A stretch of 32,000 bases of DNA from NCBI GenBank assembly GCA_047651235.1, contig CP178758.1:900001-932000 (forward strand), given 5' to 3'. The stretch's first letter is position 1, and every line of letters begins with the position of its first letter. Under the pieces are notes generated by a model. It was not told where the DNA came from. It made no database searches and saw nothing but the letters and a program-made list of their open reading frames with translations. Both the position numbers and the translations under genes were made by a program. The DNA is from Candidatus Electrothrix yaqonensis. Its GTDB lineage: Bacteria > Desulfobacterota > Desulfobulbia > Desulfobulbales > Desulfobulbaceae. Positions 1,120 through 27,987 of this stretch are shown here, piece by piece.

Positions 1120-1182
1120 AGATGAATCCGTGTATCTCCAGTTCAGGGTTCAGAGGTATCTGCATACGGACGCATGCCGGAA

Positions 1183-1893: not shown

Positions 1894-1894
1894 C

Positions 1895-4291: not shown

Positions 4292-6280
4292 TTATCCTCC
4301 CAGCACAGCAATAAGCGCCTGCACCACTTCGGGATCAAAATCCCCTTTTTCCACCCCATGCTGCAGTTCATAGAACGCCACCTTCATGTCCCACCGCTCC
4401 CGTCTGGAATGCCAGGAGGTGAGGGTGTCATAGGTATCGGCAACAGCAATAATGCGTGAACCCAGAGGAATATCCTTTTCTTTCAGACCGGACGGAAAAC
4501 CGCTGCCGTTATATTTTTCATGGCTGTGGTAAATCATTTTGAGCAGCTCATCATCGTGATAGCCGTTTTTTTTCAGAATTCTGGTGCTCTCAACACCGTG
4601 ACGGAGAAATTCCTGATATTCGTCTGAGCTGAGACTTCCTTTGCTGCGGTTCAGCAGATGATGCGGTACTGCCTCCAGCCCCACATCGGCAAGAAACCCG
4701 GCCCGGAGGATAGTCTTTTTTTTCTGCTCAGACTGGATGCCGAGTTTATCGGCAATGGCATAGGAAAGCAGAGCAACCACCTTGCCGTGCCCGATGCGTC
4801 CGTCCAGAACCTCGGAAGGAAGAATGACATCATCGGGTATATTGATGAATTTTTCAGCAGCACTGTATTTCTTGTAAAAAGCAGGGGTGATTTTTTCCCG
4901 ATCCAGTAAAGCATTTTTTATACCGACGACCTCATAGGCCGCTATCCTCCGGCTTTTTCCTTTCACCGAAAGACAGTTCCTGTCTTTCTGCATGGTTGCT
5001 TCGGCAAAGGCAATTTTAAGAGCATTATCTTCAGGCTTCAGATGCAGGGCCTGCGAGAAACAGGACAAAGCTTTATCGACCTCCATAATCGCCAGATTCA
5101 GCTGGCCGATCTGATGATAGATATCTGCCTTGACATGCGCATTGTCTGTTTCCAGCTGCTGTTCAAGTGCACTGATTTTTTTCTGGACCCCGGTCACCAG
5201 CGAGTCGGAGAGTTTGACCTCATGTTTAAGTTTTACCTCAATAAACGACCGGACCCCCTCCATTGTGGAGCTGTCGATAAGAACTGAACCGGGAGAACAT
5301 GCCTTTTCAAGACGCGATGACAGGTTGACGACATCGCCGATTGTTGTGTATGCCTGCCTTTTGGCCCCGATCAGGCCGACAATGGCCATTCCGGAGGCTA
5401 TGCCGATCCGCATCTGCCAAGGATATTTCCGGGACAGCATTTTTTCCTGCATCTTGATGGCGCAGACCACAGCCATGAGGCGATAATGCGTAAAATCAAG
5501 CGGTGTCCCGAATTCGCACATAATGCCGTCACCCTGGTATTTATCAATATGGGCATTATAGGCGAACATAATTTTTTCCATTTCACTGAAATACCTATTC
5601 AGATCCCGTGTCACCAGCTCCGGCTGCCGGGTTTCGGAGTAGGCGGTAAATCCGGTAAGATCAGTAAACATGACGCTGATTTTTCTCTTTTCATCCCGCA
5701 GGCGCCCCTCAATAATAAGTTTGGCCACAGTCGCATCCATTGTGGAATATAGGGCATCCTCCACCTTCCCCTTCATCATTTCCAGCATATTGCGGGATTC
5801 CTCCAGTTCCGCAGTCCGTTTGGATACCTCTCTTTCCAGGTCGCCGGCATTTTTCTGCAGGGAAAGGTTAGCCTGACGGAGTTCTTCCTGCTGCTCAGTC
5901 AGTACGTCGTTCAGGCGAAGGGCTTTCCTAGTCTCCCGAAGCAGTTTTTCCTGCAGCCCGCCGACAACCGCACCGGCAATGATCAGAAAAGAACCCCATA
6001 AAACAAGATGGATAATGACCTCCTGGCTGTTGGAGTTCGCTGTGAAATGCTCCGGAAAAAGAACAAAATAGAGGACGTTAAAAACTATGCAGAGCAAAGC
6101 GCTCAGCACCGTGTTGCGTCTTCCGAGATAGTAGCCGGAAACAATAACCGGCAGGTAATAGAAATTCAGAAAAGCTACTTTCTGAATAATAAGAGAATTG
6201 ATTACCGCTACACTGACAATGAGCGAAAAAATAAAGAACAGTTCAAAATGTCTCAGAATAAAAGATTTCAGGAATTCCAT
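4292..6280 (-). CDS. Membrane-bound class III adenylate/guanylate cyclase fused to TPR-like repeats and a degenerate HD-GYP domain
   Basis: N-terminal TM helices and a coiled coil. Cyclase motifs VMFTDLTGFT, KYQGDGIMCEFG and IGDVVNLSSRLE. C-terminal HSHEKYNGSGFPSGL...IIAVADTYDTLTS. The start is moved to ATG 6280 (MEFLKSF...), which has a GGAGA RBS. The 110 aa upstream in the track ORF look non-coding. Confidence 0.85.
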   Translation of the reverse strand: MEFLKSFILRHFELFFIFSLIVSVAVINSLIIQKVAFLNFYYLPVIVSGYYLGRRNTVLSALLCIVFNVLYFVLFPEHFTANSNSQEVIIHLVLWGSFLIIAGAVVGGLQEKLLRETRKALRLNDVLTEQQEELRQANLSLQKNAGDLEREVSKRTAELEESRNMLEMMKGKVEDALYSTMDATVAKLIIEGRLRDEKRKISVMFTDLTGFTAYSETRQPELVTRDLNRYFSEMEKIMFAYNAHIDKYQGDGIMCEFGTPLDFTHYRLMAVVCAIKMQEKMLSRKYPWQMRIGIASGMAIVGLIGAKRQAYTTIGDVVNLSSRLEKACSPGSVLIDSSTMEGVRSFIEVKLKHEVKLSDSLVTGVQKKISALEQQLETDNAHVKADIYHQIGQLNLAIMEVDKALSCFSQALHLKPEDNALKIAFAEATMQKDRNCLSVKGKSRRIAAYEVVGIKNALLDREKITPAFYKKYSAAEKFINIPDDVILPSEVLDGRIGHGKVVALLSYAIADKLGIQSEQKKKTILRAGFLADVGLEAVPHHLLNRSKGSLSSDEYQEFLRHGVESTRILKKNGYHDDELLKMIYHSHEKYNGSGFPSGLKEKDIPLGSRIIAVADTYDTLTSWHSRRERWDMKVAFYELQHGVEKGDFDPEVVQALIAVLGG

Positions 6281-6368
6281 TTTTCCGTCTCCGATAGTTT
6301 TTCTTATCTGTCCCCGCCCAGACCGCCTTCCAAGTGAATATATTCGCACCTTATCAGGAATAAAATTC

Positions 6369-6396
6369 ATTATATACGTTATACTGCAAAAGTAAA
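6369..6396 (-). promoter_or_regulatory. Candidate sigma70-type promoter for the cyclase gene
   Basis: The minus strand reads TTTACT, 16 nt, TATAAT. The -10 is a perfect consensus. Confidence 0.4.
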
Positions 6397-6446
6397 CAGG
6401 AATAGGGGCAAGCGGGGCAGCGTCCTGAGAAAGGATAAGGGAGAGA

Positions 6447-7211
6447 CAGGGCTGTTCAATTCTATAAGAGCTTGTATTTTCAAGACGTATGCAGTAATTG
6501 ATACAGAAGAACTTTACACGAGGATTCTGCATGCTGTTTTTTTGCTGAACACAATCAAAGATCATCGACGCGGGCAGGGCCGGCGATATGAGCTTACGCA
6601 TATTACGCATATTCTTCTGTTTTCGATCATGGCGATCCTAAGCGGTTCGGATTCTTATCGCAAAATCCATCTGTTCGTTGATGCGCATCGTGAAAGGCTC
6701 AATGAATATTTCGGCCTGGACTGGAAAAAAGCTCCTGCATATACAACGATCCGCACTGTCATTCTGAACACTTCCGGTTCGGAACTTGAGCGGATTTTCA
6801 GGGAGCACGGCAAAGCTCTCGCGGAAGAGGAACCGGACGGAGAATTTATTCATTGCGACGGCAAAACTCTCCGGGGAAGTTTCGATAACATGAAGGATAT
6901 TAATCAGCTTCAGATATTGAGCGCTTTTGCCGGCGACCGCGCCGTCGTTCTCGGCCATGAAGAAATCAAGGAGAAAAGCAATGAAATCCCGGCGGCGCGG
7001 AAACTGATGAAAGAACTCGGTTTATCCGACCGCATTTGACCGCTCCCGAATTCGTTGCAATCCGCACATATTTGCAAAACTGAGGAGCTTTGCTCTCAAT
7101 ATTCTTCGTAAGAACAAGGTGAAAGATGTCAGCCGGGAGCTTTTCAGGAACTGTATGGATATACATCGTCTGTTTGATTACGCCGGGATTTTTTAGAATT
7201 GAACAGCCCTG
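6447..7211 (+). mobile_element. Internally deleted, non-autonomous ISAs1-family insertion sequence (765 bp)
   Basis: Perfect 18-bp terminal inverted repeats: CAGGGCTGTTCAATTCTA at 6447-6464 and its reverse complement at 7194-7211. Flanked by a perfect 10-bp direct repeat AAGGGAGAGA at 6437-6446 and 7212-7221. Confidence 0.85.
6542..7196 (+). pseudogene. ISAs1-family (H-repeat-associated) transposase lacking the central DDE portion
   Basis: The N-terminal 165 aa (IKDHRRGQGRRYEL...FIHCDGKTLRGS...NEIPAARKLMKELGL) stop at 7039. From 7041, in a different frame, the sequence reads SRIRCNPHIFAKLRSFALNILRKNKVKD...FDYAGIF*, which matches the extreme C-terminus of ISAs1 transposases. About 170 aa are missing between the two parts. 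Confidence 0.8.
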
Positions 7212-7300: not shown

Positions 7301-8488
7301 TCATTTTTTATTCGGGGTTCTGATGTCAAACCTCGGTGCCTGCAGCATCCGACTGATCTGCGCCTTCAGGTCAGCCAGATCAGGATTGACGCTGTCCTGC
7401 TCGGCAATCAGGGCGCAGAGGCGTTCCTGTTCCACCGGATGGATATATTCCGGCGGCGTGCCGTCCTGCAGCTGGATATGGGCCGCCCAGGGGACAAAGT
7501 AGGTGGTGGCCGGGCAGTCTTGGTGTTCTGAGATATCCAGGTTCAATCCGGCAACGTACAGCAGATTTCTGCCCTTATATTCCGTGCCCCGGCGGATGGA
7601 TTCCACGGCCCGGGCGAACTCCAGCTGAATATTTATCTTGGCGGCCCGCAGCGGCGGATTTTTCGAGGTAACAATGATGGGCATAAATTCAATCAGATTG
7701 CGCTCCAGCAGGATAGAATCGTCGGTTTCATGAAAATCCTCCCGGAAATAAAATAGATCCTCAGTGAGATAATCACCGATGCTCTCTCCGGCCCCGCTCT
7801 TCCAGGTATATCCGGCCCCGTCAAGACGCCTGCGGAAGCTCTCGGATACCTCGTAGGTCTGACTGGTGCTGACCGCCCCGACCGGCTGAATATTGCCGTT
7901 TTCATCCGGCGTGACAATGCGTTCCAGATGCACGACTAGACCGTTCACAACCGGATGGGAGGCAAAATCGATAAGGGAATTTTTTACCGTGATCAGATGG
8001 CGGCCCCGGTCGTCCCGATGCAGGAATATCCGCTGCCTGGCAAACTCATACTGCTTCAGATACGGCGTGATCACATGGGTTATTTTTCCGCAGGACGGCG
8101 TGATGCAGATGCCGTCCCTCTTGGGCCGGGTGCAGGTGCCGTAGATATCGGTCCGGGGATCATAGCCCACATGGCTTGCCTGGACAATCACGAAATCTTC
8201 CCCGTGATTGGCATGGGGACCGTGACGGTCAATGGCGACGATTCCTCCCACCTGCCCGTGGTCAAACGGAAAGGTATCAAAATGCTTGGTCAGCAGAATG
8301 ATGGGCCAGCCCTGATTTTCGTCCGAGCAGAAAGCTCTGGAGGGCATGATCCTGCCTTTGCGGAACCCCAAGGTCATACAGAGATTATAGAGCTTGGGCA
8401 CAAATTCAGCATAGGGAATTGCAAAGCCGTCTACCCTGAACGGAGCCAACCGGCGGATAATTTTTGACTGGAGATAAGTATGCTGCAT
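7301..8488 (-). CDS. Conserved hypothetical protein, possibly LCIB-like (beta-carbonic-anhydrase-related)
   Basis: 395 aa with an AAGGAA RBS. No P-loop and no TM helix. It has a C54-S-D, H106 (ASHVGYD), C133-G-K arrangement. The family assignment rests on recollection only. Confidence 0.6.
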   Translation of the reverse strand: MQHTYLQSKIIRRLAPFRVDGFAIPYAEFVPKLYNLCMTLGFRKGRIMPSRAFCSDENQGWPIILLTKHFDTFPFDHGQVGGIVAIDRHGPHANHGEDFVIVQASHVGYDPRTDIYGTCTRPKRDGICITPSCGKITHVITPYLKQYEFARQRIFLHRDDRGRHLITVKNSLIDFASHPVVNGLVVHLERIVTPDENGNIQPVGAVSTSQTYEVSESFRRRLDGAGYTWKSGAGESIGDYLTEDLFYFREDFHETDDSILLERNLIEFMPIIVTSKNPPLRAAKINIQLEFARAVESIRRGTEYKGRNLLYVAGLNLDISEHQDCPATTYFVPWAAHIQLQDGTPPEYIHPVEQERLCALIAEQDSVNPDLADLKAQISRMLQAPRFDIRTPNKK

Positions 8489-8633: not shown

Positions 8634-9383
8634 TCAAACCACCTCAATCACCATCAGCCCCGCTCCGGCCACCAGCAACCCGACCAGCAGCAGCACATCC
8701 CGCTGCTGCATCTTTCCTGTTGTATACAAAGAGTGAAACTGGCCGGAAAACCCGCGCAGCTCCATTGCCTGCTGTACCCGTTCGGCCCGGTTCCAGCTCC
8801 GCACCAGCAGCATCCCCAACATGGAACTGTAGCTCCGATAGGTGTGCAGATTGGTCTGCGGCCGGAAGCAACGCAATTCTGCGGCCCGCTGCAGGCGTTG
8901 CAGCTCCTCGTAGATCAGAGCTATGTAGCGGTAGGAAAACAGGAGGAGCAGGCAGATCTTCGGTGAAACCCGCAGAGTCTGCAGGGCATGACCAAGCTGA
9001 GCTGCACTGGACGTGGCAAGCAGGCTGATAAACACCAGCAGTACCGCATTGGATTTGATCGTGATCAGAATAGCCATGGAGAGTCCTGCGCGGCTCAGAT
9101 CGATGCCAGCAATCTCCAGCACGAGTCCGCCGTAGGTCAGAGGCAGAACCAGGAGGAGCAGGAGATTGAAGGTGTTGACGACAAGAATTCTGCGGAGAAC
9201 TATTTTCCAGGGCAGGCGGGCTGCGGCCACCAGAACAAGGGCGAGCAGCAGCCCGATAAGGGCGGTGCTGAGATTACGGCACAGGGCGATAATCAGACTG
9301 AGCAGCCCGGCGCTGATCAGCTTGCCGCGCGGGTCTGCCCGGTGCAGAAGTGAGGCCCCGCGACTGAACTGTTCAAAGGTCAT
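8634..9383 (-). CDS. cbiQ: ECF-type Ni/Co transporter transmembrane (T/Q) component, CbiQ/NikQ
   Basis: Polytopic protein. The N-terminal SLLHRADPRGKL and the C-terminal coupling-helix motif AMELRGF are typical of CbiQ/EcfT. ATG 9383 with an AGGAAG RBS is preferred over GTG 9398. Confidence 0.8.
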   Translation of the reverse strand: MTFEQFSRGASLLHRADPRGKLISAGLLSLIIALCRNLSTALIGLLLALVLVAAARLPWKIVLRRILVVNTFNLLLLLVLPLTYGGLVLEIAGIDLSRAGLSMAILITIKSNAVLLVFISLLATSSAAQLGHALQTLRVSPKICLLLLFSYRYIALIYEELQRLQRAAELRCFRPQTNLHTYRSYSSMLGMLLVRSWNRAERVQQAMELRGFSGQFHSLYTTGKMQQRDVLLLVGLLVAGAGLMVIEVV

Positions 9384-9431
9384 ACGGCTTCCTACCACAA
9401 CTGCACCGGCAGGTTCAACAGAAATAATTCA

Positions 9432-10199
9432 TTATTTATAGGCATCCAGGTAGGTCCAGAGCACAGCACCGAGCTCCACGCCCTTTTCGTTGCCTTCCGG
9501 ATCCTTGATGGTATAATCGGCCTCATTCAGCGCGGAAAAACCCCACCATCCCGGCTGGGGACAGGCAAAGGTAAATACGCCGTTTTCATCGGCCTTGACC
9601 ACCTGGGTGACATGATAGTCGCTGGGTGCGGTGAATTTCTTGTCCTTGTTATAGAGCTCCACTTCCACTTCCGCACCCGGAACCGGCTTGCTGTTCAACA
9701 GCACCTGACCGCTGAAGCTGTTGCCTGCATAGTTGCCGAAAGGACGGGTCAGGGGCACGATCTCCGTGGCAACGCCGATCGGCTTATCCCAGCCCTGGTC
9801 ATCACCGAAGGCGGCAATCATGGTTTTTGTGTAATGGATGATATGGAGATCTTCGGCCGGTTCCCAGTACGGGGTCGGCTCCATAACAAAGGTATACACG
9901 CCGGGACGCTTGATGGGTATTTCTGCTGTCCAAGCAGTATGATCCATTACTTTGGCTTCCTTGAGAGCCGGAACCAGATTGGTCTTCTGTCCGCCTGCAA
10001 CCATGAAGAACTCTTTCGGTTTGGCCAGATCCATGCCGATGATCTCAAAGGGATGCGAAAAGGAGAGGTCCAGCTTGACGCTCTTCTTTTTCGGGGTGAG
10101 GATGTTGTCCGAGGGAATGATCATGCCGAAATGGGCAAAGGCTTCGCCGGTCAGGCAGGCAAGAAATACTGCGGCCAAGGAAACTGCACGAATCTTCAT
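9432..10199 (-). CDS. Periplasmic DUF4198-type protein (NikK-like auxiliary component of Ni/Co uptake)
   Basis: Signal peptide ending GEAFA, followed by HFGMIIPS. Beta-rich 255 aa protein with a PQPGWWGF motif. AGGAG RBS. It lies between the M/L-like and Q components. Confidence 0.65.
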   Translation of the reverse strand: MKIRAVSLAAVFLACLTGEAFAHFGMIIPSDNILTPKKKSVKLDLSFSHPFEIIGMDLAKPKEFFMVAGGQKTNLVPALKEAKVMDHTAWTAEIPIKRPGVYTFVMEPTPYWEPAEDLHIIHYTKTMIAAFGDDQGWDKPIGVATEIVPLTRPFGNYAGNSFSGQVLLNSKPVPGAEVEVELYNKDKKFTAPSDYHVTQVVKADENGVFTFACPQPGWWGFSALNEADYTIKDPEGNEKGVELGAVLWTYLDAYK

Positions 10200-10296
10200 C
10201 TTGTGTTACTCCTTTTTTTAGAGGGATAAAAACGAACTGCTCCCCGGCACATCCGGAAGAGCACATCATACACATACACGGAACAGAGAGCAGCGC

Positions 10297-10947
10297 TCAG
10301 GTCTGCCCTGCTTTTTGCTTTTTTCTGGAACGCAGCCAGGCAAACAGCCCGGCCAGCCCGATGATGCAGCCGATGCCGCCGAGAATATCCTGCGGAGCGA
10401 TTTTTCTTTGCTGCTCTTCTGCCAAGGCCTGGCGGACAGGAGCCAGCTGCCGGTTTACTTCCTCACGCACAATACGGCGTATCTGCGCTTCATCCGGGCC
10501 TGCGGTTACCGGCTGTGTCCTGCCGCCGGATCCTGCAGTAGAAGATTTCGCAGGATGGTCTGCTGCAGCCGAGGAGGCAACAAGGTACTCCTCGGCTGCT
10601 AGCGGCCATTCGGCACGATGTCCGTCCCCAGCATCGGCAATGATCAGCAGGTCAGGCTGCTTTTCCACTGTCTGTGCAGGCGGAGAAAACTGAAACTTGC
10701 CCTGTCCGTCCGTGCGGGTTGTCAGCAGGACGGCTCCTGACGCGGCATCCTCTACCGTGACTGTAATGTTTTTAGCGCCCCGTCCGCCGCTGAATTTAGC
10801 TTCGCCGTAGATTAGCTGGTCTTCTGCCCAGGCGAAAACATTCATTTTATGGGCCGAAGCCAGCAGCGGTGCCAGCAGGAGCACCAGCAGAATAGCGGGC
10901 CGGAAGATTGTCAGAATGCGCAGGTTCATGCGTACTTCTTCATGCAT
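10297..10947 (-). CDS. NikL-like auxiliary membrane protein: signal peptide, beta-sandwich-like domain, low-complexity linker and C-terminal TM anchor
   Basis: Sequence LLASA then HKMNVFAWAEDQLIYGEAKF...TRTDGQGKFQF, with a C-terminal TM helix ILGGIGCIIGLAGLFAWL. The start is ambiguous: ATG 10947 overlaps the cbiM stop by 8 nt, and ATG 10929 is the alternative (MNLRIL...). Confidence 0.55.
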   Translation of the reverse strand: MHEEVRMNLRILTIFRPAILLVLLLAPLLASAHKMNVFAWAEDQLIYGEAKFSGGRGAKNITVTVEDAASGAVLLTTRTDGQGKFQFSPPAQTVEKQPDLLIIADAGDGHRAEWPLAAEEYLVASSAAADHPAKSSTAGSGGRTQPVTAGPDEAQIRRIVREEVNRQLAPVRQALAEEQQRKIAPQDILGGIGCIIGLAGLFAWLRSRKKQKAGQT

Positions 10948-11542
10948 ATTTCAGATGGAGAATTTCCGGCTGTACCCTGGCAATGAAGCTGACCGTGAAC
11001 ATGGTGACACAGCCTTCAATGACCATAACAGGAAGATTGGCCGCAATAATGAGTTTGGCCGCCGCCAAGAAGCCGGTATCTGACAGGGCAAGAGCCGAGG
11101 CCGTGAGCAGTGAGGCCAGCAGGATGGCCAGCGCCCCTGCGCTAAAGGCGGCTGCAGGTCTTGTTTTCGGATCATCCAGCCAAGGGCGGGCCAGATAAAA
11201 ACAGCAGACCGCCGGAATGGACATGGTTGCCGTGTTCACTCCGAGGACAGTCAGGCCGCCGAACTGAAAGAAAAGCGCCTGCAGAAACAGGCCGGTCAGA
11301 ATGGCCGGGAACGCAGCCCAGCCCAACATGATGCCGAGCAGACCGATGAGCATCAGATGCGCTGATCCCGGCCCGATGGGCACATGCACAAGTCCGGCAA
11401 CGAAAAAGGCCGAGGAGAGCATGGCAGCGGGCATGATCTCCTCCGGATCAATCTTCTTCAGCCCGATATATGTGCCGATTGCGCTGATTACCCCGCCGCT
11501 GAGCAGGACTGGTGCAGCCAGAACTCCTTCTGAAATATGCAT
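10940..11542 (-). CDS. cbiM: ECF-type Ni/Co transporter substrate-capture (S/M) component, CbiM/NikM
   Basis: N-terminal MHISEGVL, the metal-binding Met-His N-terminus characteristic of CbiM/NikM. 200 aa, polytopic. Confidence 0.85.
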   Translation of the reverse strand: MHISEGVLAAPVLLSGGVISAIGTYIGLKKIDPEEIMPAAMLSSAFFVAGLVHVPIGPGSAHLMLIGLLGIMLGWAAFPAILTGLFLQALFFQFGGLTVLGVNTATMSIPAVCCFYLARPWLDDPKTRPAAAFSAGALAILLASLLTASALALSDTGFLAAAKLIIAANLPVMVIEGCVTMFTVSFIARVQPEILHLKYA

Positions 11543-12007: not shown

Positions 12008-12193
12008 ATGTTTGAAGTAGTTGTTGATAAAGAAAAATGTGTCGGTTGCGAAGAGTGTGTCGGTTCCTGCCCGGCAGGCGTATTTGAGATGGTTGACGGC
12101 AAGTCTGATCCGGTGAACGAAGATGAATGTCTGGGCTGTGAGACCTGCGTCGAAGTCTGTGAGGTAGAAGCCATCACCGTGACTGAATCCTGA
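12008..12193 (+). CDS. 2x[4Fe-4S] ferredoxin (61 aa)
   Basis: Motifs CVGCEECVGSCP and CLGCETCVEVCE. AAGGAG RBS. Confidence 0.9.
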   Translation: MFEVVVDKEKCVGCEECVGSCPAGVFEMVDGKSDPVNEDECLGCETCVEVCEVEAITVTES

Positions 12194-12256: not shown

Positions 12257-12353
12257 GCCCTCCCTGCCGGATTTTCTTTTCCCCTTTGTTCACAGCAGAA
12301 TAACAGAATAGACTTTTTGTTCTTCAGCTCTGCAACCTCGACGGGCTGCAGAT

Positions 12354-12389
12354 AAAAAAAAGGCACAGAGCAGATGCCCTATGCCTTTT
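12354..12389. terminator. Possible bidirectional terminator between the convergent ferredoxin and Cys-repeat genes
   Basis: AAAAAAAAGGCA ... TGCCTTTT: an A-run, a stem and a T-run. The stem is short. Confidence 0.3.
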
Positions 12390-12443: not shown

Positions 12444-13487
12444 TTACTGCTGGAAGCGCAGCCCTATGCCGAACCGTCCGTACTCCGAGATGCTGTCCAG
12501 TTCATCGACCGCATTGCGGGCTTCCAAGAAGACAGAAATGTTGAAGTCGTCCGGATCGCCGTACACACGGGCCCCGATATTGGCCAGAAAATCAATATCC
12601 GTGTCCTCCGAATCAGAGTCATCGTCTCCTGAGCTGATCCAGGTGCCGAGACCGATGCCCAGGAATCCGTCAAAGCTTTCAGACCAGTTGTACTGGGCAA
12701 AGAGATCGACCAGCAGGGCATCGTCGCCGTCAGAACCGCTCACTTTGGGCGCTGCACCGACTAAAGCCAGGAAAGAGACATCTTCCAGCGAAGTATCGGT
12801 AAAGGGGCTGTACTCAACACCGAGCCGGGCAAAGAGATAATCTGCCGGATCCGAGAGCCGCAGATAACCAAGATCTCCTATAAAACGGAGAGCCTTCGAC
12901 CCGCTACCCTCTCCGTCATCGGTGAAATCATCATCAGGAACAGGAGGTGCATCGGGATCAAGCAGACATTCTTCCGGGATACCCTGACATCCTTCCGGAC
13001 AGTCTTCAGCATCCTCAGCACCTGCTGCGCATGATTCCGGGCAGTCGGACGGAAATTTGTCGCAGATGTTGCATCCGAGTTCATCGCATACAGGCGGGCA
13101 GTCTTTCCCGTCCGGATTCTCAATGCATGCAACAGAACAGTCATCGCAGGTGTAACAGCTTATATCTCTGCAGATATCCGGGCAGGTTTCACCGAAAGGA
13201 TTTTTTTTGCAGGCAGCCGTGCAGTCACTGCAGGACTGACAGGCTACATCTCTGCAGATATCCGGACATCCCTTGCCGTAAGGATTTTTTTTGCATGCCT
13301 CCGAACACTCGTTACAGGATGCCTGACATTCCGGATCAGCGCAGATCGGCGGACAGCCCTTGGCATAAGGATTTTCCAGGCATTCATCTGAACAGTCGTC
13401 GCAGGTCAGCGCTCTGCCTCCGGCAGAGGCGATACCGGCTGACAGCAGGATAAAGACAGCCGTCTGTGCCAATACTTTCAGTTTCAT
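12444..13487 (-). CDS. Secreted Cys-rich repeat protein with an acidic linker and a C-terminal domain that looks like an 8-strand outer-membrane beta-barrel
   Basis: Signal peptide ending GIASA. Four 28-aa repeats of pattern C-x2-C-x3-C-x8-C-P-x2-C-x4-C-x2, containing NP(Y/F)GxxCP. The C-terminal ~150 aa have alternating hydrophobic strands and end GIGLRFQQ. ATG 13487 with a GGAGAG RBS at 8 nt is preferred over GTG 13496. Confidence 0.7.
   Translation of the reverse strand: MKLKVLAQTAVFILLSAGIASAGGRALTCDDCSDECLENPYAKGCPPICADPECQASCNECSEACKKNPYGKGCPDICRDVACQSCSDCTAACKKNPFGETCPDICRDISCYTCDDCSVACIENPDGKDCPPVCDELGCNICDKFPSDCPESCAAGAEDAEDCPEGCQGIPEECLLDPDAPPVPDDDFTDDGEGSGSKALRFIGDLGYLRLSDPADYLFARLGVEYSPFTDTSLEDVSFLALVGAAPKVSGSDGDDALLVDLFAQYNWSESFDGFLGIGLGTWISSGDDDSDSEDTDIDFLANIGARVYGDPDDFNISVFLEARNAVDELDSISEYGRFGIGLRFQQ
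12963..13403 (-). repeat. Coding tandem repeats with an ~84-bp period: 4 copies plus a divergent fifth Cys-rich unit
   Basis: The plus strand shows recurring gcagatatccgg(g/a)ca...aaggatttttttgca blocks. The protein repeats are CDDCSDECLENPYAKGCPPICADPECQAS, CNECSEACKKNPYGKGCPDICRDVACQS, CSDCTAACKKNPFGETCPDICRDISCYT and CDDCSVACIENPDGKDCPPVCDELGCNI. Confidence 0.85.
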
Positions 13488-13600
13488 GGTTTTCACTCTC
13501 CTTTTTCTCTGAAGTTCATCTCATTGCCCGCAGTCATCACCAGCGGGCCGTATTCTGTTTTAAACATTTCCGGGTGAACGGTAAAATTTTTTATACTCTT

Positions 13601-13629
13601 TTTATATAAGCTCTCTTGTCATCTGGCAA
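13601..13629 (-). promoter_or_regulatory. Candidate promoter for the Cys-repeat gene
   Basis: The minus strand reads TTGCCA, 17 nt, TATAAA, about 115 nt upstream of the start codon. Confidence 0.35.
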
Positions 13630-18250: not shown

Positions 18251-18416
18251 GGCGTCCGGTTTCAACGCAACCGGAAAATTGTCAATCACCTGTCGCCATT
18301 TTCCGCAGGTATTACATTCTCATTCCTTACTCCTCTGATTTCGATTGACGAACAGCTCTCTTTCTGCTTTTCTGTAAGCTCAATTGCCTTCAGCCCCGAC
18401 TTTGCAAAAACATACG

Positions 18417-21400
18417 ATGCGCAATTTTTTTATTCGCCTCCCCTTGCGCCTGATCCTCGGCGTTGCCTGCATTTTTCTGCTTTTTTTGGGGTGCAGCTTT
18501 CTCTTTTCACCTGCGCCGTCGGATACCGAAGCCCAATCTTCCCCTGACCTGGAAATACAGAAAGCGGTACAAAAAGTGGAGCTGGCTGTGCTCAAAGATC
18601 AGTCCATTGATCCTGATAAAATCATGCGCGTACAGGTGGAAGTGGACTACGATGAGGGAGAGGAGGGAGCATGGTATCCCAAGGCGGAATCGCCGGTTCT
18701 GACGCCGCTGGTGGAAAAAGGAAAACTCCCTCCGGTGGCTGAGCGGGTCGGGGAAGAACCGCTGGTGCTCAAGGGTCTGCATGGCGCTGCCGAGTACGGC
18801 GGCAGCATGTACCGGCTGAACAGTGTCCCGGCCCCGCGCCTCACCCCGATCAATCTGGTGCGCTTCAGTCCGCAGGGCTTTCCCATTGTTCCCAATGTCG
18901 CCAAAAGCTGGACCATCAGCAAGGACGGTCGCCGCTTTACCTTTAGCCTGCGCAAGGGCATGAAATGGAGTGACGGGCAGCCCTTTACTTCAGAGGATAT
19001 CCTGTATTGGTGGCGGCACGAACAATGCGATAAAAGCGTCAGTCCCGGCGGCCCTGCGCCGCTGTATGTCCATCACGGCAAACCCATGACCGTGACTGCC
19101 CCTGATCCGCAGACCATTATTTTTTCCTTTGCAGATCCCTATTTCACCTTTCTGGAGAAACTCGCCGCTTCACCGGGGTATTACAATGCATCGCCGCGCC
19201 ATTTCCTGCAGTCCTATCATCCTGAACTGGGCGATCCGCACCTCATCCTGGATGTCATGCAGACCCATAACTTGGTCAATAAACGGGCTGTGTACGCGAT
19301 GGTCAGCAACCGGGTTGAGCGCCCCAGCATCGGCCCCTGGATCACGCGGACGGAGAAGATGAGCTCACCGGAGACCATGGTGCGCAACCCCTATTACTGG
19401 GCCGTAGATACCGAGGGGCGGCAGCTTCCCTATATAGATCGCATCGTGATAACGGAAAAGTCCAAGGATATGGTGGGGATTTCAGCTGCCCAGGGCGAGG
19501 TGACTGTGCAGGCGCGCTCTATCCGGAATGAAGAGTACACCATGCTGATGCGGCAGCGGCAGACCTACGGCTACCAGGTACATCATTGGGTGCAGGGAAA
19601 GGGCAGCGCCTGGGCTATGGCCTTCAACCTGAACCGCAGGATTCCCGAAGGAGACCGGGAAGCGGCCCATAAAGCCAAACTGCTGGCTGATAAACGCTTT
19701 CGCCAGGCCCTCTCCCTTGCCGTGGATCGGCAGACCATTATTCAGGCCCTGTTCGGCGGTGAGGGGGAACCCCATGCTGTGGGCCCGCCGCCGACCTCCC
19801 CGTTCTATTTTCCGGAACTGCAGCAGACCTACAGCCGCTTTGACCCGGCAAAGGCAAATGCATTATTCGATGCCCTCGGCCTGATCGAGCGCGACAGGGA
19901 TGGTTTCCGCCGTTTTCCCGACGGTCCGTCCCTGCTTTTTGATATCAACTACTGCTCCTTTACCGGCGAAGGTCCCGGACAGTTCATTGTCGAGGACTGG
20001 CGCCGGGTCGGTATCCGGGCGCGGATGCGTTCCCAGGACCGCTCAATTTTTTATGTCGAAAAACTGGCCGGGCTGCACGATATCACGGTCTGGCGGGGCT
20101 ACGGAGCCTATTTTCCCATCCTTGACCTGCGCTATTATGCTCCGCTGAATTCGGAATCCAACTTTGCCATCCGTTACGGCTCCTGGTATGCTTCGGGCGG
20201 TTTGTTCAAGGAAGACGGGACTGTGCGCGGCACACCGCCACCCAAGGATCATCCCCTGTATCAGGCCCTCCTCCTGAATGAGCAGATCAAAGAGGCCCCC
20301 ACTTCTGCCGAACGCCGCGCCCTGTTCGGCGAGCTGCTCAAACTGGCTGCCGAGAATGTCTATATTCTGGACATTACCACGCCACTTCCAGCTCTGGCCG
20401 TGGTGAAAAACGGGGTCAAAAATGTGCCGATCAAGGGGGTGTATTCTTGGTCCTTCCAAAGCCCGGCCAATCTGGGCCTGGAGACCTGGTGTTACGCAGA
20501 ACCCAAAATGAGCGCAGCTGAGATCCGGGATATTACCTCTGAGCTCAGCCATATCACGCCGGTGCGCCCGCTCCACAGTACCGGGGTGCAGAAGCCCTCT
20601 GCTTCTGCCGTTACAGCCCCGGCATCTGAGCCTGCTGCTTCCCTTGTCGGGACGCTGATCCGTTACGGTATCGGGCTGGCCCTGCTCCTTCAGCTGATCC
20701 TGCTTATCTTCCGCTTTCCCTTTGTCGGCTATCGGCTGCTGATTATGATCCCGACCCTGATCCTGATCTCCGTCATCACCTTTGTGGTGATCGAGCTGCC
20801 GCCCGGCGATGCGATCAGCAGCAAGATCATGCAGATGCAGGAAGCAGGCGGTGAGGTCAACCAGAAGGAGATTGATGAAATGAAGGCCCTGTTCCGCATC
20901 GACGAATCGGCCTGGCATCGCTATGCCTGGTGGATGGGACTGGACTGGTTTGCCAGCCGAGAAGGCAGGGATGAGGGCCTGCTGCAGGGGAATATGGGGC
21001 GCTCCATGATGGACCTCAAACCGGTGAACGACAAAGTCGACGACCGACTGCTTTTCACCATTCTGATCTCCCTGGGCACGATCCTCTTCACCTGGGCGAT
21101 GGCCCTGCCCATCGGTATCTACTCGGCAGTGCGCCAGTATTCGTTTTTTGATTACTTTTTTACCGTGATTGGATTCATCGGCATGTGCATTCCCGGGTTC
21201 CTGCTCGCCCTGCTTCTGATGTTTGCTGCCGAATCTTGGCTCGGGATCAGCGTGTCCGGGCTGTTTTCCCCGGAATATGCCGTTCAGAGCGGCTGGAGTC
21301 AGGGCAAGATTCTGGACCTGCTGCGCCATATCTGGCTCCCCATTTTTGTGCAGGGCGTGGCCGGGACCGCCGGGATGGTCCGGGTCATGCGGGCCAACCT

Positions 21401-21746
21401 GCTGGACGAGCTGCAGAAGCCCTATGTGATTACGGCGCGGGCCAAGGGCCTCCGGCCCATGAAGCTGCTTGTCAAATATCCCATCCGCCTTGCCCTCAAC
21501 CCGTTTATCTCCGGGATCGGCAGCATTTTCCCGGAACTCATCTCCGGCGGGGCCATCATCGCCATTGTCCTGAGCCTGCCCACCATTGAGCCCATGCAGC
21601 TCAATGCGGTCATGCAGCAGGACATGTATCTGGCCGGTTCTATCCTCATGCTCCTGAGTCTGCTCAGCGTGCTCGGCACCCTGTTCAGCGATATCATGCT
21701 CCTCCTCCTTGATCCGCGCATCCGCACTGCCGGAGGCTGGAAATGA
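18417..21746 (+). CDS. Fusion protein: family-5 (peptide/nickel, DppA/OppA-like) substrate-binding domain, an extra TM helix and a DppB/OppB-like permease
   Basis: Signal anchor MRNFFIRLPLRLILGVACIFLLFLGC. SBP_bac_5-like body of about 680 aa. Ser/Ala/Pro linker, then an extra TM helix (LIRYGIGLALLLQLILLIF), then a permease beginning LLIMIPTLILISVITFVVIELPPGD. The start is moved to ATG 18417. Confidence 0.85.
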   Translation: MRNFFIRLPLRLILGVACIFLLFLGCSFLFSPAPSDTEAQSSPDLEIQKAVQKVELAVLKDQSIDPDKIMRVQVEVDYDEGEEGAWYPKAESPVLTPLVEKGKLPPVAERVGEEPLVLKGLHGAAEYGGSMYRLNSVPAPRLTPINLVRFSPQGFPIVPNVAKSWTISKDGRRFTFSLRKGMKWSDGQPFTSEDILYWWRHEQCDKSVSPGGPAPLYVHHGKPMTVTAPDPQTIIFSFADPYFTFLEKLAASPGYYNASPRHFLQSYHPELGDPHLILDVMQTHNLVNKRAVYAMVSNRVERPSIGPWITRTEKMSSPETMVRNPYYWAVDTEGRQLPYIDRIVITEKSKDMVGISAAQGEVTVQARSIRNEEYTMLMRQRQTYGYQVHHWVQGKGSAWAMAFNLNRRIPEGDREAAHKAKLLADKRFRQALSLAVDRQTIIQALFGGEGEPHAVGPPPTSPFYFPELQQTYSRFDPAKANALFDALGLIERDRDGFRRFPDGPSLLFDINYCSFTGEGPGQFIVEDWRRVGIRARMRSQDRSIFYVEKLAGLHDITVWRGYGAYFPILDLRYYAPLNSESNFAIRYGSWYASGGLFKEDGTVRGTPPPKDHPLYQALLLNEQIKEAPTSAERRALFGELLKLAAENVYILDITTPLPALAVVKNGVKNVPIKGVYSWSFQSPANLGLETWCYAEPKMSAAEIRDITSELSHITPVRPLHSTGVQKPSASAVTAPASEPAASLVGTLIRYGIGLALLLQLILLIFRFPFVGYRLLIMIPTLILISVITFVVIELPPGDAISSKIMQMQEAGGEVNQKEIDEMKALFRIDESAWHRYAWWMGLDWFASREGRDEGLLQGNMGRSMMDLKPVNDKVDDRLLFTILISLGTILFTWAMALPIGIYSAVRQYSFFDYFFTVIGFIGMCIPGFLLALLLMFAAESWLGISVSGLFSPEYAVQSGWSQGKILDLLRHIWLPIFVQGVAGTAGMVRVMRANLLDELQKPYVITARAKGLRPMKLLVKYPIRLALNPFISGIGSIFPELISGGAIIAIVLSLPTIEPMQLNAVMQQDMYLAGSILMLLSLLSVLGTLFSDIMLLLLDPRIRTAGGWK

Positions 21747-22840
21747 ACAGGAACAAGGACATCGCCTCCCTGAGCCAGTGGCAGCTCATTGCCTTGCGCT
21801 TCAACCGGCACCGGCTGGCCACGGTCGCCCTGCTCCTGATCGGGGGGCTGTATACCTTAGCGTTTTTTGCCGACAGCTTTGCCGTCAACACCCCCTATGA
21901 TAAAGACGTGCGGTACATTTACGCGCCGCCCATGCTGCCCAAGTTCAGCCTGGAGCAGGGATTCTACGCAAATGCCTCTATCCAGCAGACCGATCCTGTT
22001 ACCCTGAGAAGGTCATATCAGTTCACCCCGGACACCTCTGTACCGTTAGGCTTTTTTGTCAAAGGTTATACATATAAATTGCTGGGCCTGATTCCGACAG
22101 ATATCCATTTTTTGGGGGTCCGCCAGAGAGGAGCAGATGCACCGAAATTCCTCCTTTTCGGCGGCGATAAATTCGGTCGGGATATCTTCAGCAGAATCCT
22201 GCTCGGCACCCGGATTTCTCTGTCCATCGGCGTGGCCGCCATTGTGATTTCCTTTGTCCTGGGCGTGAGCATCGGCGGCATGTCCGGCTATTTCGGGGGC
22301 TGGACCGACACCCTGATTCAACGCCTGATCGAGGTGATTGATGCCTTTCCCAAGCTGCCCCTCTGGCTCTCCTTGGGAGCTGCTCTGCCCCGAAACTGGT
22401 CCAATCTTCAAGTCTATTTCGGCATCACTATCATCCTCTCGCTGGTGGGCTGGACCGGCATGGCCCGGGTTGTGCGTGGAAAAATTCTCAGCCTGCGGGA
22501 GGAGGATTACGCCTTGGCGGCCCGCCTGATGGGCGCCGGGCACAGCCGGATCATCTTCCGCCATCTTGTGCCCGGCTTTACCAGCCATATCATCGTCTCG
22601 CTGACCATGACCGTGCCGGGAATGATCCTGGGCGAAACCAGCCTGTCTTTTCTCGGCCTGGGCCTGAAGCCGCCCATCATTAGCTGGGGCGTGATGCTCC
22701 AGGACTGCATGAGTATGCAGGTGGTGAAGAATTATCCTTGGCTGCTTCTGCCGGTGCTCATGATTATCCTGACCGTGCTCTGCTTCAACTTCATCGGCGA
22801 CGGCCTCCGCGATGCCGCTGATCCTTATACTGCAAGCTGA
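21743..22840 (+). CDS. DppC/OppC-like ABC permease
   Basis: Sequence GGDKFGRDIFSRILLGTRISL plus a C-terminal FNFIGDGLRDAADP motif. ATGA overlap with the upstream gene. Confidence 0.9.
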   Translation: MNRNKDIASLSQWQLIALRFNRHRLATVALLLIGGLYTLAFFADSFAVNTPYDKDVRYIYAPPMLPKFSLEQGFYANASIQQTDPVTLRRSYQFTPDTSVPLGFFVKGYTYKLLGLIPTDIHFLGVRQRGADAPKFLLFGGDKFGRDIFSRILLGTRISLSIGVAAIVISFVLGVSIGGMSGYFGGWTDTLIQRLIEVIDAFPKLPLWLSLGAALPRNWSNLQVYFGITIILSLVGWTGMARVVRGKILSLREEDYALAARLMGAGHSRIIFRHLVPGFTSHIIVSLTMTVPGMILGETSLSFLGLGLKPPIISWGVMLQDCMSMQVVKNYPWLLLPVLMIILTVLCFNFIGDGLRDAADPYTAS

Positions 22841-22854
22841 CTGCGAGATCGTCT

Positions 22855-23868
22855 ATGTCGGAAAATGTTCTGGAAATAAAAAACCTGCGGGTTGCCTTCC
22901 GCTTGGAAGAAGGCGAGATCCATGCTGTGCAGGATGTCTCGCTCGCCATCCCGCGCGGTAAGATTGTCGCCCTGGTCGGTGAATCAGGCTGCGGCAAGAG
23001 TGTCACCGGTCTCTCCATTCTCCGCCTGATTCAGCGGCCCGGTGAAATCACCGGCGGCGAGATGCTTTTCAACGGTCAGGACGGCAGAAGCGTTGATATT
23101 GCCCGGCTGAGAGAGAAGGACAAGGAGCTGTACTCCCTTCGCGGTAATCGGATTTCGATGATTTTTCAGGAGCCCATGACCGCGCTTTCGCCGGTGCATA
23201 CCATCGGCAACCAGCTCTGTGAGGTTCTGCTTCTCCACCGGAAGGTGCGCAAAAGACAGGCGGAAAGAAAGGCCATGATGATGTTGGGGCGGGTCGGTTT
23301 TCCTGCCCCGGAACGGAGCCTCCGGCAGTATCCTTTTGAGCTGTCCGGCGGAATGCGCCAGCGGGTGGTGATCGCTATGGCCCTGCTGGCGGAACCGGAA
23401 CTGCTGATCGCCGATGAGCCGACCACTGCCCTTGATGTGACCATCCAAGCGCAGATTCTGGCCCTGATGCATCGGCTCCAGCGGGAGGAAGGCAATTCCG
23501 TCCTCCTTATCACCCATGACCTCGGCGTGGTGGCCCAGGTCGCTGATGCAGTGGCGGTCATGTACCTTGGCCGCATCGTTGAAAAAGGCCCCATGCGCGA
23601 CATCATGCAGTCGCCCCTGCACCCCTACACCCAGGGGCTGCTCCAATCCCTGCCTGGTCTGCACTTGGAGCATAAACGCCTTCCCGCCATCAAAGGAACC
23701 GTGCCGGGCCTGAACGAGCTGCCCGAGGGCTGCCCGTTTCATCCCCGCTGTCCGCATTGCACAGCCGGTCTTTGTGACGGCCAGGCTGTGCCGTCTCCTG
23801 AAGCCTTTGGCCCGGAACGGGAAGCAGCCTGTTTCCGCATCAACAAACTGCAGGGAGTGCCGATATGA
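22855..23868 (+). CDS. DppD/OppD-like ABC ATPase
   Basis: Walker A GESGCGKS, signature LSGGMRQR, Walker B LLIADEPTTALD. C-terminal Cys cluster CPFHPRCPHC. Confidence 0.9.
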   Translation: MSENVLEIKNLRVAFRLEEGEIHAVQDVSLAIPRGKIVALVGESGCGKSVTGLSILRLIQRPGEITGGEMLFNGQDGRSVDIARLREKDKELYSLRGNRISMIFQEPMTALSPVHTIGNQLCEVLLLHRKVRKRQAERKAMMMLGRVGFPAPERSLRQYPFELSGGMRQRVVIAMALLAEPELLIADEPTTALDVTIQAQILALMHRLQREEGNSVLLITHDLGVVAQVADAVAVMYLGRIVEKGPMRDIMQSPLHPYTQGLLQSLPGLHLEHKRLPAIKGTVPGLNELPEGCPFHPRCPHCTAGLCDGQAVPSPEAFGPEREAACFRINKLQGVPI

Positions 23869-27979: not shown

Positions 27980-27987
27980 GCAATATC

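Follow-up and report, generated by a model that had tools for sequence, protein, structure and literature searches.

The window considered here, i.e., the whole stretch of 32,000 nucleotides that was analyzed, derives from the cable bacterium Candidatus Electrothrix yaqonensis and carries on its minus strand, at 12444..13487, the coding sequence of a predicted cysteine-repeat outer membrane protein of 347 amino acids plus stop codon, as read from the list of open reading frames and the translation. The stop codon lies at 12444-12446 and the ATG at 13485-13487; judged from the sequence, the latter is the real start, because all orthologues open with the same MKLKVL and an invariant Shine-Dalgarno sequence, AAGGAG (13498..13503, minus strand, conserved in 7 Electrothrix loci), stands 10 nt upstream of it. 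A GTG at 13496 was rejected as an alternative start, as it falls within this ribosome-binding region.

The gene is preceded by a predicted sigma-70-like promoter (13601..13629, minus strand), composed of TTGCCA (13629-13624), a 17-nt spacer, and TATAAA (13606-13601). In an alignment of the upstream regions, the TTGCCA-N17-TATAAA block is kept across 7 Electrothrix loci while the sequence farther 5' diverges, which makes it probable that the gene has its own promoter, as a first reading of the bare sequence (hereafter, the earlier note) had proposed. A simple sigma-70 consensus scan found no minus-strand promoter in the upstream spacer, and the promoter was recovered only through its conservation across species. 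Downstream, a terminator-like hairpin with a T-run (12350..12380, minus strand) is located about 64 nt past the stop codon, and the gene is monocistronic. No riboswitch or other Rfam element was detected around it or upstream of nikM.

Two sets of neighbors deserve mention. The first is a convergent gene on the plus strand (12008..12193) for a 2x[4Fe-4S] ferredoxin of 61 aa, assigned by Pfam Fer4 (of the 19 families that it matches, 18 are Fer4 or related Fe-S families), which adjoins the cysteine-repeat gene in Electrothrix loci only. The second is an ECF-type Ni/Co uptake operon on the minus strand (8634..11542), made up of nikQ, nikK (DUF4198), nikL, and nikM/cbiM and identified by Pfam, NCBIfam, synteny, and a published figure legend; the start of nikM/cbiM, at 11542, is some 900 nt away from the cysteine-repeat gene. 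Both neighbors are thus where the earlier note had placed them, according to the coordinates and the Pfam and NCBIfam assignments. The ferredoxin and nikMLKQ lie beside the gene in all Electrothrix-type loci that extend far enough to cover them, whereas none of the Electronema loci has the nik linkage, and the gene is found there among a histidine kinase, TauE, Alph_Pro_TM, and adenylosuccinate lyase instead. Since this neighborhood is conserved in Electrothrix-type loci and not in Electronema, it says little about function, and a functional link to the nik operon was dropped. The window also contains ZnuABC-like and Nik/Opp-type importers.

Regarding expression, the gene Ga0183576_11333 of Candidatus Electronema GS, taken as the orthologue by matching contig and gene numbers in the transcript table, has transcript rank 98 and an RPKM of 3147, with no change from oxic to nitrate conditions. 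The orthologue therefore apparently ranks 98th among the transcribed genes of this bacterium, with a transcript level comparable to those of IF-1 and ribosomal protein S1. A silent gene, which the earlier note had named among the outcomes fatal to its idea, is not what this apparent place in the top 100 transcripts points to.

Architecture of the Encoded Protein

The protein begins with a putative cleavable Sec-type signal peptide (aa 1-22; 13422..13487, minus strand), MKLKVLAQTAVFILLSAGIASA with GG after the cleavage point, recognized in the letters themselves and shared by the orthologues. It has neither a twin-arginine motif nor a lipobox Cys and, since the former is missing, neither the Tat route nor cytoplasmic loading of a cofactor is indicated.

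The mature protein then displays four exact matches, by regular expression, to C-x2-C-x3-C-x8-CP-x2-C-x4-C, the module that had been described from the letters alone. All are on the minus strand: unit 1 (aa 29-54; 13326..13403; CDDCSDECLENPYAKGCPPICADPEC), unit 2 (aa 58-83; 13239..13316), unit 3 (aa 86-111; 13155..13232), and unit 4 (aa 114-139; 13071..13148). Tandem Repeats Finder reports an 84-nt period at 13164-13319, within which unit 2 lies and which also marks unit 3. The looser fifth unit of the earlier description is found at aa 142-174 (12966..13064, minus strand), is wider than the others, and has six Cys invariant in 25/25 orthologues; its tally of about 30 Cys in 150 aa becomes exactly 30 Cys within aa 29-174 (146 aa). 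With the central spacing set off by slashes, the Cys residues are arranged mirror-symmetrically, as 2,3/8/3,4 in the four units and 6,3/9/3,6 in the fifth, and as 4,2,3/8 or 13/3,2,4 in paralogues. Because of this symmetry, the units are read as twin-CX3C hairpins, with two CX3C motifs across a short turn and mirrored flanking Cys; the sequence indicates that each would comprise a twin-CX3C core around an NP(Y/F)G turn plus an outer Cys pair.

Chance occurrence is not an issue for this pattern, because all 30 Cys are either invariant or kept in at least 90% of 25 full-length orthologues, aligned end to end and 56-74% identical to the window protein. The other positions of the Cys module are conserved to roughly the same degree as the barrel described below (60% versus 65% pairwise identity), and such strong conservation outside the Cys suggests, at the sequence level, a specific partner and not a passive spacer. 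The number of units differs between species, from 3 to 6 or more, which answers in the affirmative the question, raised earlier, of whether the repeat count varies.

In five AlphaFold2 models, the Cys module is ordered (mean pLDDT 82.6-85.5, pTM 0.64), and it is predicted to form a stack of five hairpins in which the only helices are turns of 3-5 residues. Its composition is unusual, with 19% Cys, almost no hydrophobic core, and a net charge of about -22, and the mature protein contains zero His. The freshwater orthologues are much less acidic, so that the negative charge may be linked to salinity.

The earlier note did not recognize the repeat, and wider searches gave the same answer. The Cys module matched no Pfam or NCBIfam family, and its AlphaFold2 model (pLDDT 85.5) gave zero Foldseek matches in the PDB. 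A sequence profile search of the PDB returned only poxvirus A16/OPG143 and Ste50 (E about 0.01); given the empty Foldseek result for the modelled fold in that database, these matches were attributed to biased composition. Likewise, a HMMER profile scan of 1.84 billion representative proteins found no true relative of the module outside the family; the sole non-family match was P0098 (E 3.4e-4), a protein with CxxNW(Y/F)GxxC repeats that is unrelated. A known disulfide-rich adhesin or structural domain, which would have counted against the earlier idea, did not emerge from these domain, fold, and profile searches.

The closest parallel to the hairpins is found in mitochondria, where the small Tim (twin-CX3C) and CHCH (twin-CX9C) proteins of the intermembrane space are single long helix-loop-helix hairpins, and where reduced small Tims can bind zinc. 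The two groups have in common with the present units two CX3C motifs facing across a turn and, as deduced here from the spacing, nested Cys pairs. However, the units of this protein are 26-28 aa long, with short helical turns and outer Cys rungs, and occur five in tandem, and no sequence or fold match links small Tim or CHCH proteins to the Cys module.

The Cys units are followed by an acidic, proline-rich linker (aa 175-198; 12894..12965, minus strand), predicted to be disordered from its composition and from a pLDDT below 50 for aa 179-196, in keeping with the very acidic linker noted at first. In the alignment, most orthologues have one additional Cys unit at this position.

The remainder, aa 199-347 (12447..12893, minus strand), is a predicted 8-stranded beta-barrel anchor, supported by AlphaFold2, Foldseek, amphipathicity, and a sub-threshold Pfam match. 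AlphaFold2 places 8 strands within aa 200-346 at a pLDDT of about 90, with block means mostly of 82-96 and two loop blocks at 67-73, and hydrophobicity alternates along the strands, giving eight amphipathic strands. With this model, Foldseek retrieves the folds of OmpA, OprF, NspA (target-normalized TM-score 0.69), OmpX, OmpW, and PagL, the PDB entries being 1bxw (OmpA, E 3e-5) and also 4rlc, 1p4t, 2f1t, 2m06, and 2erv. In a search with the whole protein, the only match in Pfam and NCBIfam is OMP_b-brl (PF13505), which scores 13.8 bits (E 0.067), under its gathering cut-off of 28.7; on the model, the C-terminal domain is of the fold class of OMP_b-brl and not a PF13505 member. The C-terminus, ...GIGLRFQQ, contains the G-x-x-hydrophobic-x-F motif with F345 at the place expected for a beta-signal, followed by two residues, the last being Q where an aromatic is usual; in 16/25 orthologues the last residue is F or Y. 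The small OmpA/OmpX-type barrel of eight strands suggested earlier is thus also what the models predict, and the contrary outcome, a C-terminal region not predicted as a barrel, did not materialize.

Barrels with an even number of strands are inserted from the periplasm, where both termini stay. Given 8 strands and standard outer membrane protein biogenesis, the Cys module should therefore be periplasmic and tethered to the outer membrane, a topology that the earlier note had already derived from the strand count and that holds insofar as the barrel prediction does.

The N-terminal domain of OprF, together with OmpA, OmpX, and NspA, resembles this protein in its Sec signal peptide, barrel of about 150 aa, and 8 amphipathic strands, and perhaps in a beta-signal-like C-terminus. 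The differences are that the soluble domain is N-terminal here, whereas that of OmpA is a C-terminal peptidoglycan-binding domain, that the loops on both faces of the barrel are short, acidic, and unusually conserved, and include a short helix ahead of the final strand, and that the sequence remains under the Pfam threshold. A second comparison concerns the OmpM-type tethers of Negativicutes and Deinococcus-Thermus, which have an N-terminal periplasmic SLH domain and a C-terminal barrel. The same order of parts, i.e., signal peptide, periplasmic attachment module, linker, and C-terminal barrel, suggests by analogy a tethering role, even though the present protein has no SLH domain, a much smaller barrel, and no detected homology to OmpM.

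Distribution and the Barrel-Anchor Family

In three protein searches, every named homologue came from a cable bacterium, either Candidatus Electrothrix or Candidatus Electronema, and all of the GTDB loci (19/19) belong to these two genera or to unnamed Desulfobulbaceae. The protein was absent from other sulfide-oxidizing or sulfur-disproportionating Desulfobulbales in the GTDB loci and in the 1.84 billion representatives. On this sequence evidence, the cysteine-repeat protein is restricted to cable bacteria and is present in both genera.

The barrel has a wider use than the Cys module. Paralogues put other periplasmic modules on the same barrel, such as VPGPERIVEK repeats, a PKD-like domain, or a globular head with Cys units, and the window barrel is 47-66% identical to the anchors of these other architectures. 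The motif ...RFIGDLGY...FLEAR(S/N)A(V/I)DE...YGRFGxGxRF is common to the family and present in the window protein. A profile search with the barrel anchor gave 43 matches, all with E 8e-27 or better, and all the named ones are from cable bacteria, while a search with the single barrel sequence gave short family members only. For the head domain at the N-terminus of the paralogues, neither Pfam nor the PDB gave a significant match. By sequence, then, the protein belongs to a cable-bacteria-specific family that mounts varied periplasmic modules on one barrel anchor. Two paralogues, P0035 and P0042, are surrounded by unrelated housekeeping or toxin-antitoxin genes. Searches of the literature on cable bacteria or Electrothrix found no report of a "cysteine-rich" protein, and the orthologue accessions were not found in the supplements of the published papers searched.

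Possible Roles in the Cable Envelope

Cable bacteria conduct current over centimeters via periplasmic fibers that are built around a nickel-sulfur complex and are joined at the cell junctions by copper- and sulfur-rich spokes. To our knowledge, no protein that builds, sheathes, or anchors these fibers and spokes has been described. The earlier note had called any tie to sulfur-ligated nickel chemistry speculation; the remark is far more pertinent because the host is a cable bacterium.

Our main reading, to which we give a probability of about 0.5, is that the protein is a cross-linked rod in the periplasm of the cable envelope, specific to this lineage and anchored in the outer membrane. After Sec export, the predicted barrel would be inserted in the outer membrane with both termini in the periplasm, and the Cys rod would hang from the inner face of this membrane by the flexible acidic linker. 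Since the Cys domain has almost no hydrophobic core, its units must be held by Cys cross-links, and the mirrored spacing would fit three rungs per unit, C1-C6, C2-C5, and C3-C4, which are most simply putative disulfides made after export. The outcome would be a spacer or tether, rigid, rich in sulfur, and resistant to detergent, that connects the shared outer membrane with the layer of the periplasm in which the conductive fibers lie. The variation in unit number is counted as spacer-like behavior, and the fiber sheath is sulfur-rich and resists SDS and EDTA, for which its authors proposed abundant protein disulfides as the reason (PMC8238962). Two considerations speak against disulfides: the free sulfide in the sulfidic zones that cable bacteria span could keep periplasmic thiols reduced, and arrays of twin-CX3C and CxxC can also bind metals. 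The conservation of the non-Cys positions, in turn, counts against a passive spacer.

Metal binding by such arrays is the premise of a metal-thiolate protein, a tentative alternative that we regard as somewhat unlikely, in which reduced Cys would bind soft metal ions, Ni(II) or Cu(I), in thiolate clusters and the protein would serve at the outer membrane as a buffer, a chaperone, or a template on the periplasmic side. The composition of the Cys domain is compatible with it (19% Cys in CX3C and CxxC arrays, a missing hydrophobic core, a net charge of about -22), as are the exclusive presence in cable bacteria and the apparent high expression of an orthologue. Thiolate-only storage of Cu(I) is known from Csp1/Csp3 and metallothioneins, which are exported or soluble; the Csp proteins are four-helix bundles, and metallothioneins are small, unanchored, and without aromatic residues. 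High Cys content, CX3C or CxxC spacing, and lack of His are common to these proteins and the present one, which differs in its predicted fold, its outer membrane anchor, and a conserved aromatic in units 1-3 (D in unit 4 of the window protein); no match to a metallothionein or Csp family was found in Pfam, NCBIfam, PDB sequences, or Foldseek. The lack of His also counts against this alternative in another way, as most Ni(II)-handling proteins are His-rich. The genes for metal import in the window and the ferredoxin and nikMLKQ adjoining the gene in the Electrothrix-type loci would suit a metal-binding role, but the loss of the nik linkage in all Electronema loci means that it may be inherited gene order only, and the gene is transcribed as a unit of its own, in convergent orientation. 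Moreover, the charge may reflect salinity, and no metal-binding family in Pfam or NCBIfam was matched. From the literature, this alternative draws on a figure legend for the nik neighborhood, whose wording names "fd" and "hyp." (PMC11247825), on the report of a Ni/S entity in the fibers and a Cu/S entity in the cartwheels with no protein assigned (PMC13534509), and on a homology-based search for periplasmic nickel proteins that yielded no fiber candidate and that, according to its authors, could not detect a new family (PMC11976967).

A bolder proposal, and in our view an unlikely one, is that the protein is a missing protein component of the cable conduction machinery. As a thiol-rich rod, it would directly bind sulfur-ligated metal material, either by capping or anchoring nickel bis(dithiolene) nanoribbons via Cys-S-S or Cys-S-Ni or by forming the Cu/S entity of the cartwheel spokes, and would fix the wires under the outer membrane ridges. 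End-capping of the nickel bis(dithiolene) nanoribbons has reportedly been modelled in a structural paper of 2026.

It is very improbable that the protein is a periplasmic sulfane-sulfur carrier or buffer, with thiols that would carry persulfide or polysulfide while sulfide is being oxidized. The host does oxidize sulfide, and the protein is thiol-rich, predicted to be periplasmic, and apparently abundant; however, it does not resemble SoxYZ, Sud, TusA, DsrE, or rhodanese carriers in Pfam or NCBIfam, it is absent from the other sulfide-oxidizing or sulfur-disproportionating Desulfobulbales, and a fixed outer membrane anchor and an ordered fold would be odd in a carrier.

Scant credence is given to a periplasmic, poly-ferredoxin-like Fe-S protein, with chains of clusters passing electrons along the rod. 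What recalls the CxxCxxCxxxCP of 2x[4Fe-4S] ferredoxins is the C-x2-C-x2-C-x3-C at the unit junctions with a CP 8 residues later (e.g., CQSCSDCTAAC...CP), besides the ferredoxin gene next door. Nevertheless, the spacing is mirror-symmetric and not tandem, Fer4 families in Pfam and NCBIfam were unmatched even at E up to 1, and the fiber skeletons are low in Fe overall, without Fe enrichment in fibers or cartwheel and without an Fe-S Raman signal. In addition, the cofactor-compatible route for periplasmic Fe-S proteins is Tat, and export by Sec would leave no cytoplasmic cluster insertion.

Hardly any weight falls on a surface adhesin or autotransporter-like protein with its Cys-rich passenger outside the cell, for the succession of N-terminal repeats, linker, and C-terminal barrel is only superficially that of type Va, which has a 12-strand barrel and a pore helix, whereas the barrel here has 8 strands and best matches OmpA, NspA, and OmpX, 12-stranded beta-domains are only weak Foldseek matches (E at or above 0.017), and the AlphaFold2 model has no alpha-helical plug before the first strand.

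Whether as the cross-linked rod favored here or otherwise, the cysteine-repeat protein is a concrete candidate part of the sulfur-rich, metal-containing conductive envelope, because it is found only in cable bacteria, and in both genera, its orthologue is apparently highly transcribed, and it is predicted to face the periplasm with a domain that is one-fifth Cys and has no detected relatives outside cable bacteria. Should its role turn out to be no more than that of a disulfide-stapled structural tether, the protein still defines a new cysteine-hairpin repeat domain. With it comes a modular, lineage-specific family of outer membrane anchors, which may explain how the shared outer membrane of cable bacteria is shaped around the fibers.

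The cysteine-repeat protein and its domains

The ORF at 12444..13487 (minus strand) encodes a protein of 347 aa. The ATG at 13485-13487 is its true start: an AAGGAG, invariant across seven related loci, lies 10 nt upstream, and the N-terminus MKLKVL is common to all orthologues. The earlier note described this protein accurately as a whole, as judged from the ORF, regular expressions, and composition: the signal peptide and acidic linker it reported are present at aa 1-22 (Sec-type, ...ASA/GG) and aa 175-198 (also proline-rich); its pattern C-x2-C-x3-C-x8-CP-x2-C-x4-C has exactly four matches, at aa 29-54, 58-83, 86-111, and 114-139; and its figure of about 30 cysteines in 150 aa, including a fifth unit, compares with 30 counted in 146 residues, the fifth unit (aa 142-174) adding six. 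The linker is followed by 149 Cys-free residues, and the mature protein has no His, no Met, and a net charge near -49. Tandem Repeats Finder detects an 84-nt period at 13164-13319.

The Cys spacing is mirror-symmetric, i.e., 2,3/8/3,4 in units 1-4 and 6,3/9/3,6 in the fifth, and in paralogues the mirror is perfect (4,2,3/8/3,2,4 or 4,2,3/13/3,2,4). This symmetry indicates that each unit is a twin-CX3C hairpin: an NP(Y/F)G turn lies at its centre, and there are one or two outer Cys pairs besides. Such an arrangement implies that the cysteines pair antiparallel, rung by rung, the rungs being either disulfides or shared metal ligands. In 25 orthologues, with 56-74% identity to the window protein, each of the 30 Cys is either invariant or present in at least 90% of the sequences. 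Moreover, the mean pairwise identity at the non-Cys positions of this module (60%) is about equal to that of the barrel (65%), so that the module is not a freely drifting spacer. Repeat number, which the earlier note proposed to compare between strains, differs between species: some have 3-4 full units, most have 5, and the homologues P0016 and P0021 have at least 6. Most orthologues carry an extra unit just before the barrel, absent from the window protein.

Folded alone, the module yields five confident and reproducible models (mean pLDDT 82.6-85.5, pTM 0.64), with three or four short helical turns in most units. It is an orphan domain, in agreement with the first reading, which did not recognize the repeat as a known domain: it matches no Pfam or NCBIfam family, its profile gives nothing but noise against all PDB sequences, and with an E limit of 10 Foldseek finds no PDB structure for its model. 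When 1.84 billion representative proteins were scanned in full by HMMER with the profile of this domain, three matches came back, two of them orthologues; the third (E 3.4e-4) was rejected as a relative, being an unrelated CxxNW(Y/F)GxxC-type repeat protein.

Regarding the C-terminal domain, AlphaFold2 on the alignment of 25 orthologues (mean pLDDT 79) models eight strands (200-211, 215-226, 237-251, 257-269, 273-285, 297-310, 316-326, and 338-346), mostly with pLDDT 82-96 and lower in two loop-containing blocks, plus a short helix at 327-336; linker residues 179-196 are below 50. Hydrophobic residues alternate along the strands, as expected for a barrel. Foldseek matches in the PDB include the OmpA transmembrane domain (1bxw, E 3e-5), the OprF N-domain, NspA (target-normalised TM-score 0.69), OmpW, OmpX, PagL, and Ail, while Pfam gives only a sub-threshold match to OMP_b-brl. 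The family ends in ...YGRFGxGxRFxF, the last residue being Q in the window protein and F or Y in 16 of the 25 orthologues. The domain is thus a predicted eight-stranded outer-membrane barrel of a known fold class, in agreement with the OmpA/OmpX type proposed earlier. Barrels are inserted from the periplasm, and an even-stranded barrel keeps both termini on that side; therefore, the Cys module would face the periplasm. Overall, the protein is very probably a periplasm-facing, cross-linked rod of Cys hairpins on an outer-membrane barrel.

Transcription, neighborhood, and expression

The gene appears to be a separate transcription unit. Upstream of it, some 170 nt are conserved in seven Electrothrix loci, with divergence beyond, and this block holds a predicted promoter, TTGCCA-N17-TATAAA (13629-13601, minus), which bears out the separate promoter claimed from the first reading. 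Downstream of the stop codon lies a terminator-like hairpin, and an Rfam search at the gene found no element. The 5' leader of ~105 nt (13488-13600, minus) is strongly conserved across Electrothrix (upstream regions of loci L001-L005 and L018), matches no Rfam family, and may form a hairpin immediately upstream of the ribosome-binding site (in the window GCCCGC...GCGGGC, in the other loci CCG...CGG).

The order Cys-protein gene, convergent ferredoxin gene, and nikM-L-K-Q (Ni/Co uptake) occurs in every Electrothrix-type locus that extends far enough, and E. gigas has the same order minus nikM; a published figure legend listing 'fd' and 'hyp.' agrees with it (Fig. 2C, PMC11247825). The nickel neighborhood is weak evidence of function, because in Electronema the neighbors are unrelated, with a tandem paralogue upstream in some genomes.

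Three importers of metals or peptides are encoded in the window: nikMLKQ, a ZnuB/ABC-ATPase/ZnuA-like operon (226-3343, minus), whose ZnuA-like binding protein is unusually long (482 aa, Pfam domain at aa 35-302), and a Nik/Opp/Dpp-type ABC importer (18384-24872, plus). In the latter, the first gene encodes a 1120-aa protein in which a family-5 solute-binding protein (OppA/NikA-like) is fused to a permease domain, and the next genes encode OppC and two oligo_HPY-tailed ATPases; this importer is not conserved beside the Cys-protein gene in other species, and may correspond to the Nik/Opp/Dpp importer that has been reported to be cable-bacteria-specific (PMC11247825). Directly 3' of nikQ, where the ATPase nikO is expected, lies a 395-aa ORF (7301-8488, minus) with no significant family match and no ABC ATPase domain. 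A 772-aa fusion (4292-6610, minus) of an adenylate/guanylate cyclase catalytic domain and HD_5 (HD-GYP-like) suggests a nucleotide second-messenger enzyme with synthesis and hydrolysis modules. Finally, the region 27903-31055 resembles an island that integrated at a tRNA gene (27903-27976, plus): the sequence beyond the tRNA is low in GC (0.31-0.42 at 29-31 kb) and encodes a HepT-like toxin (28450-28791, minus) and a 504-aa SEC-C-motif protein (29541-31055, minus).

In Ca. Electronema sp. GS, the 100 genes with the highest transcription (Table S1, bioRxiv 10.1101/2020.02.22.960823) include many for 'hypothetical proteins'; one of these, Ga0183576_11333, ranks 98 (RPKM 3147) next to IF-1 and ribosomal protein S1, with a log2 change of 0.23 for oxic versus nitrate conditions. 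By IMG gene-id arithmetic this tag decodes to scaffold 113, gene 33, and the NCBI orthologue in this organism is CDV28_11333 on 'Contig113'; from these matching numbers, rather than from a sequence comparison, we infer that the two are the same gene. On the same scaffold, 20 genes away, is the gene of an 'Opacity protein' that ranks 21 (Ga0183576_11353).

Distribution and the barrel-anchor family

All named homologues come from cable bacteria, namely Ca. Electrothrix, Ca. Electronema, and the 'Desulfobulbus sp.' records TB, F1, F3, F5, US1, US4, and N2, which we take to be single-filament cable-bacteria genomes. A scan of 185,579 GTDB species, one genome each, gave 19 loci: eight in seven Electrothrix genomes, eight in Electronema, and three in unnamed Desulfobulbaceae MAGs. 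In some Electronema-type genomes a diverged second copy (39-43% identity) lies directly upstream of the orthologue (L011 8947-9765, L013 8991-9761, L015 2745-3509), which points to tandem duplication within the family.

Paralogues combine the same barrel anchor with a conserved globular head, after which come Cys units (P0029, P0033-38), a PKD-like domain (P0065), or VPGPERIVEK repeats. The last form long arrays in the Ca. Electrothrix paralogues P0039, P0042, and P0050, are labeled 'IMCp' or 'IMCp domain' in some records, and are reminiscent of the alveolin or articulin repeats in protist skeletons; with them, the anchor carries two unusual periplasmic modules. The weakest match of the anchor-profile search is at 8e-27, with an empty gap from there to 1e-3; the anchor proteins are a tight, modular, and lineage-specific family. 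Our literature search found no published description of the Cys-protein, and in UniRef the two orthologues looked up carry no label other than 'Outer membrane protein beta-barrel domain-containing protein'. Both the repeat of Cys hairpins and the modular family of anchors are new.

Possible roles in the cable envelope

Export by Sec, a Cys spacing that fits a ladder of paired cysteines, and a variable number of units, with structural repeats of other kinds on this anchor in paralogues, favor a structural role in the cable envelope, where the protein would be a tether or spacer stapled by disulfides; to this reading, the one we prefer, we assign roughly an even chance (about 0.5). The fibre sheath points the same way, being S-rich and resistant to SDS and EDTA, with disulfides proposed as the cause (PMC8238962). 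The main rival, thiolate metal binding by the Cys module, is less probable. It could draw on the Ni/S complex of the fibres and the Cu/S entity of the cartwheel, neither with an assigned protein, and on Ni-dithiolene oligomers whose end-capping via cysteine cross-links has been modelled (PMC13534509 and preprint). A classical Ni(II) protein is disfavored by the lack of His and by the lost nik linkage in Electronema. An iron-sulfur protein is unlikely given the lack of a Fer4 match, the Sec-type signal peptide, the mirrored spacing, and the Fe-poor fibres. As for the biology of these filaments, there is a real, if unproven, chance that the Cys-protein belongs to their conduction machinery.
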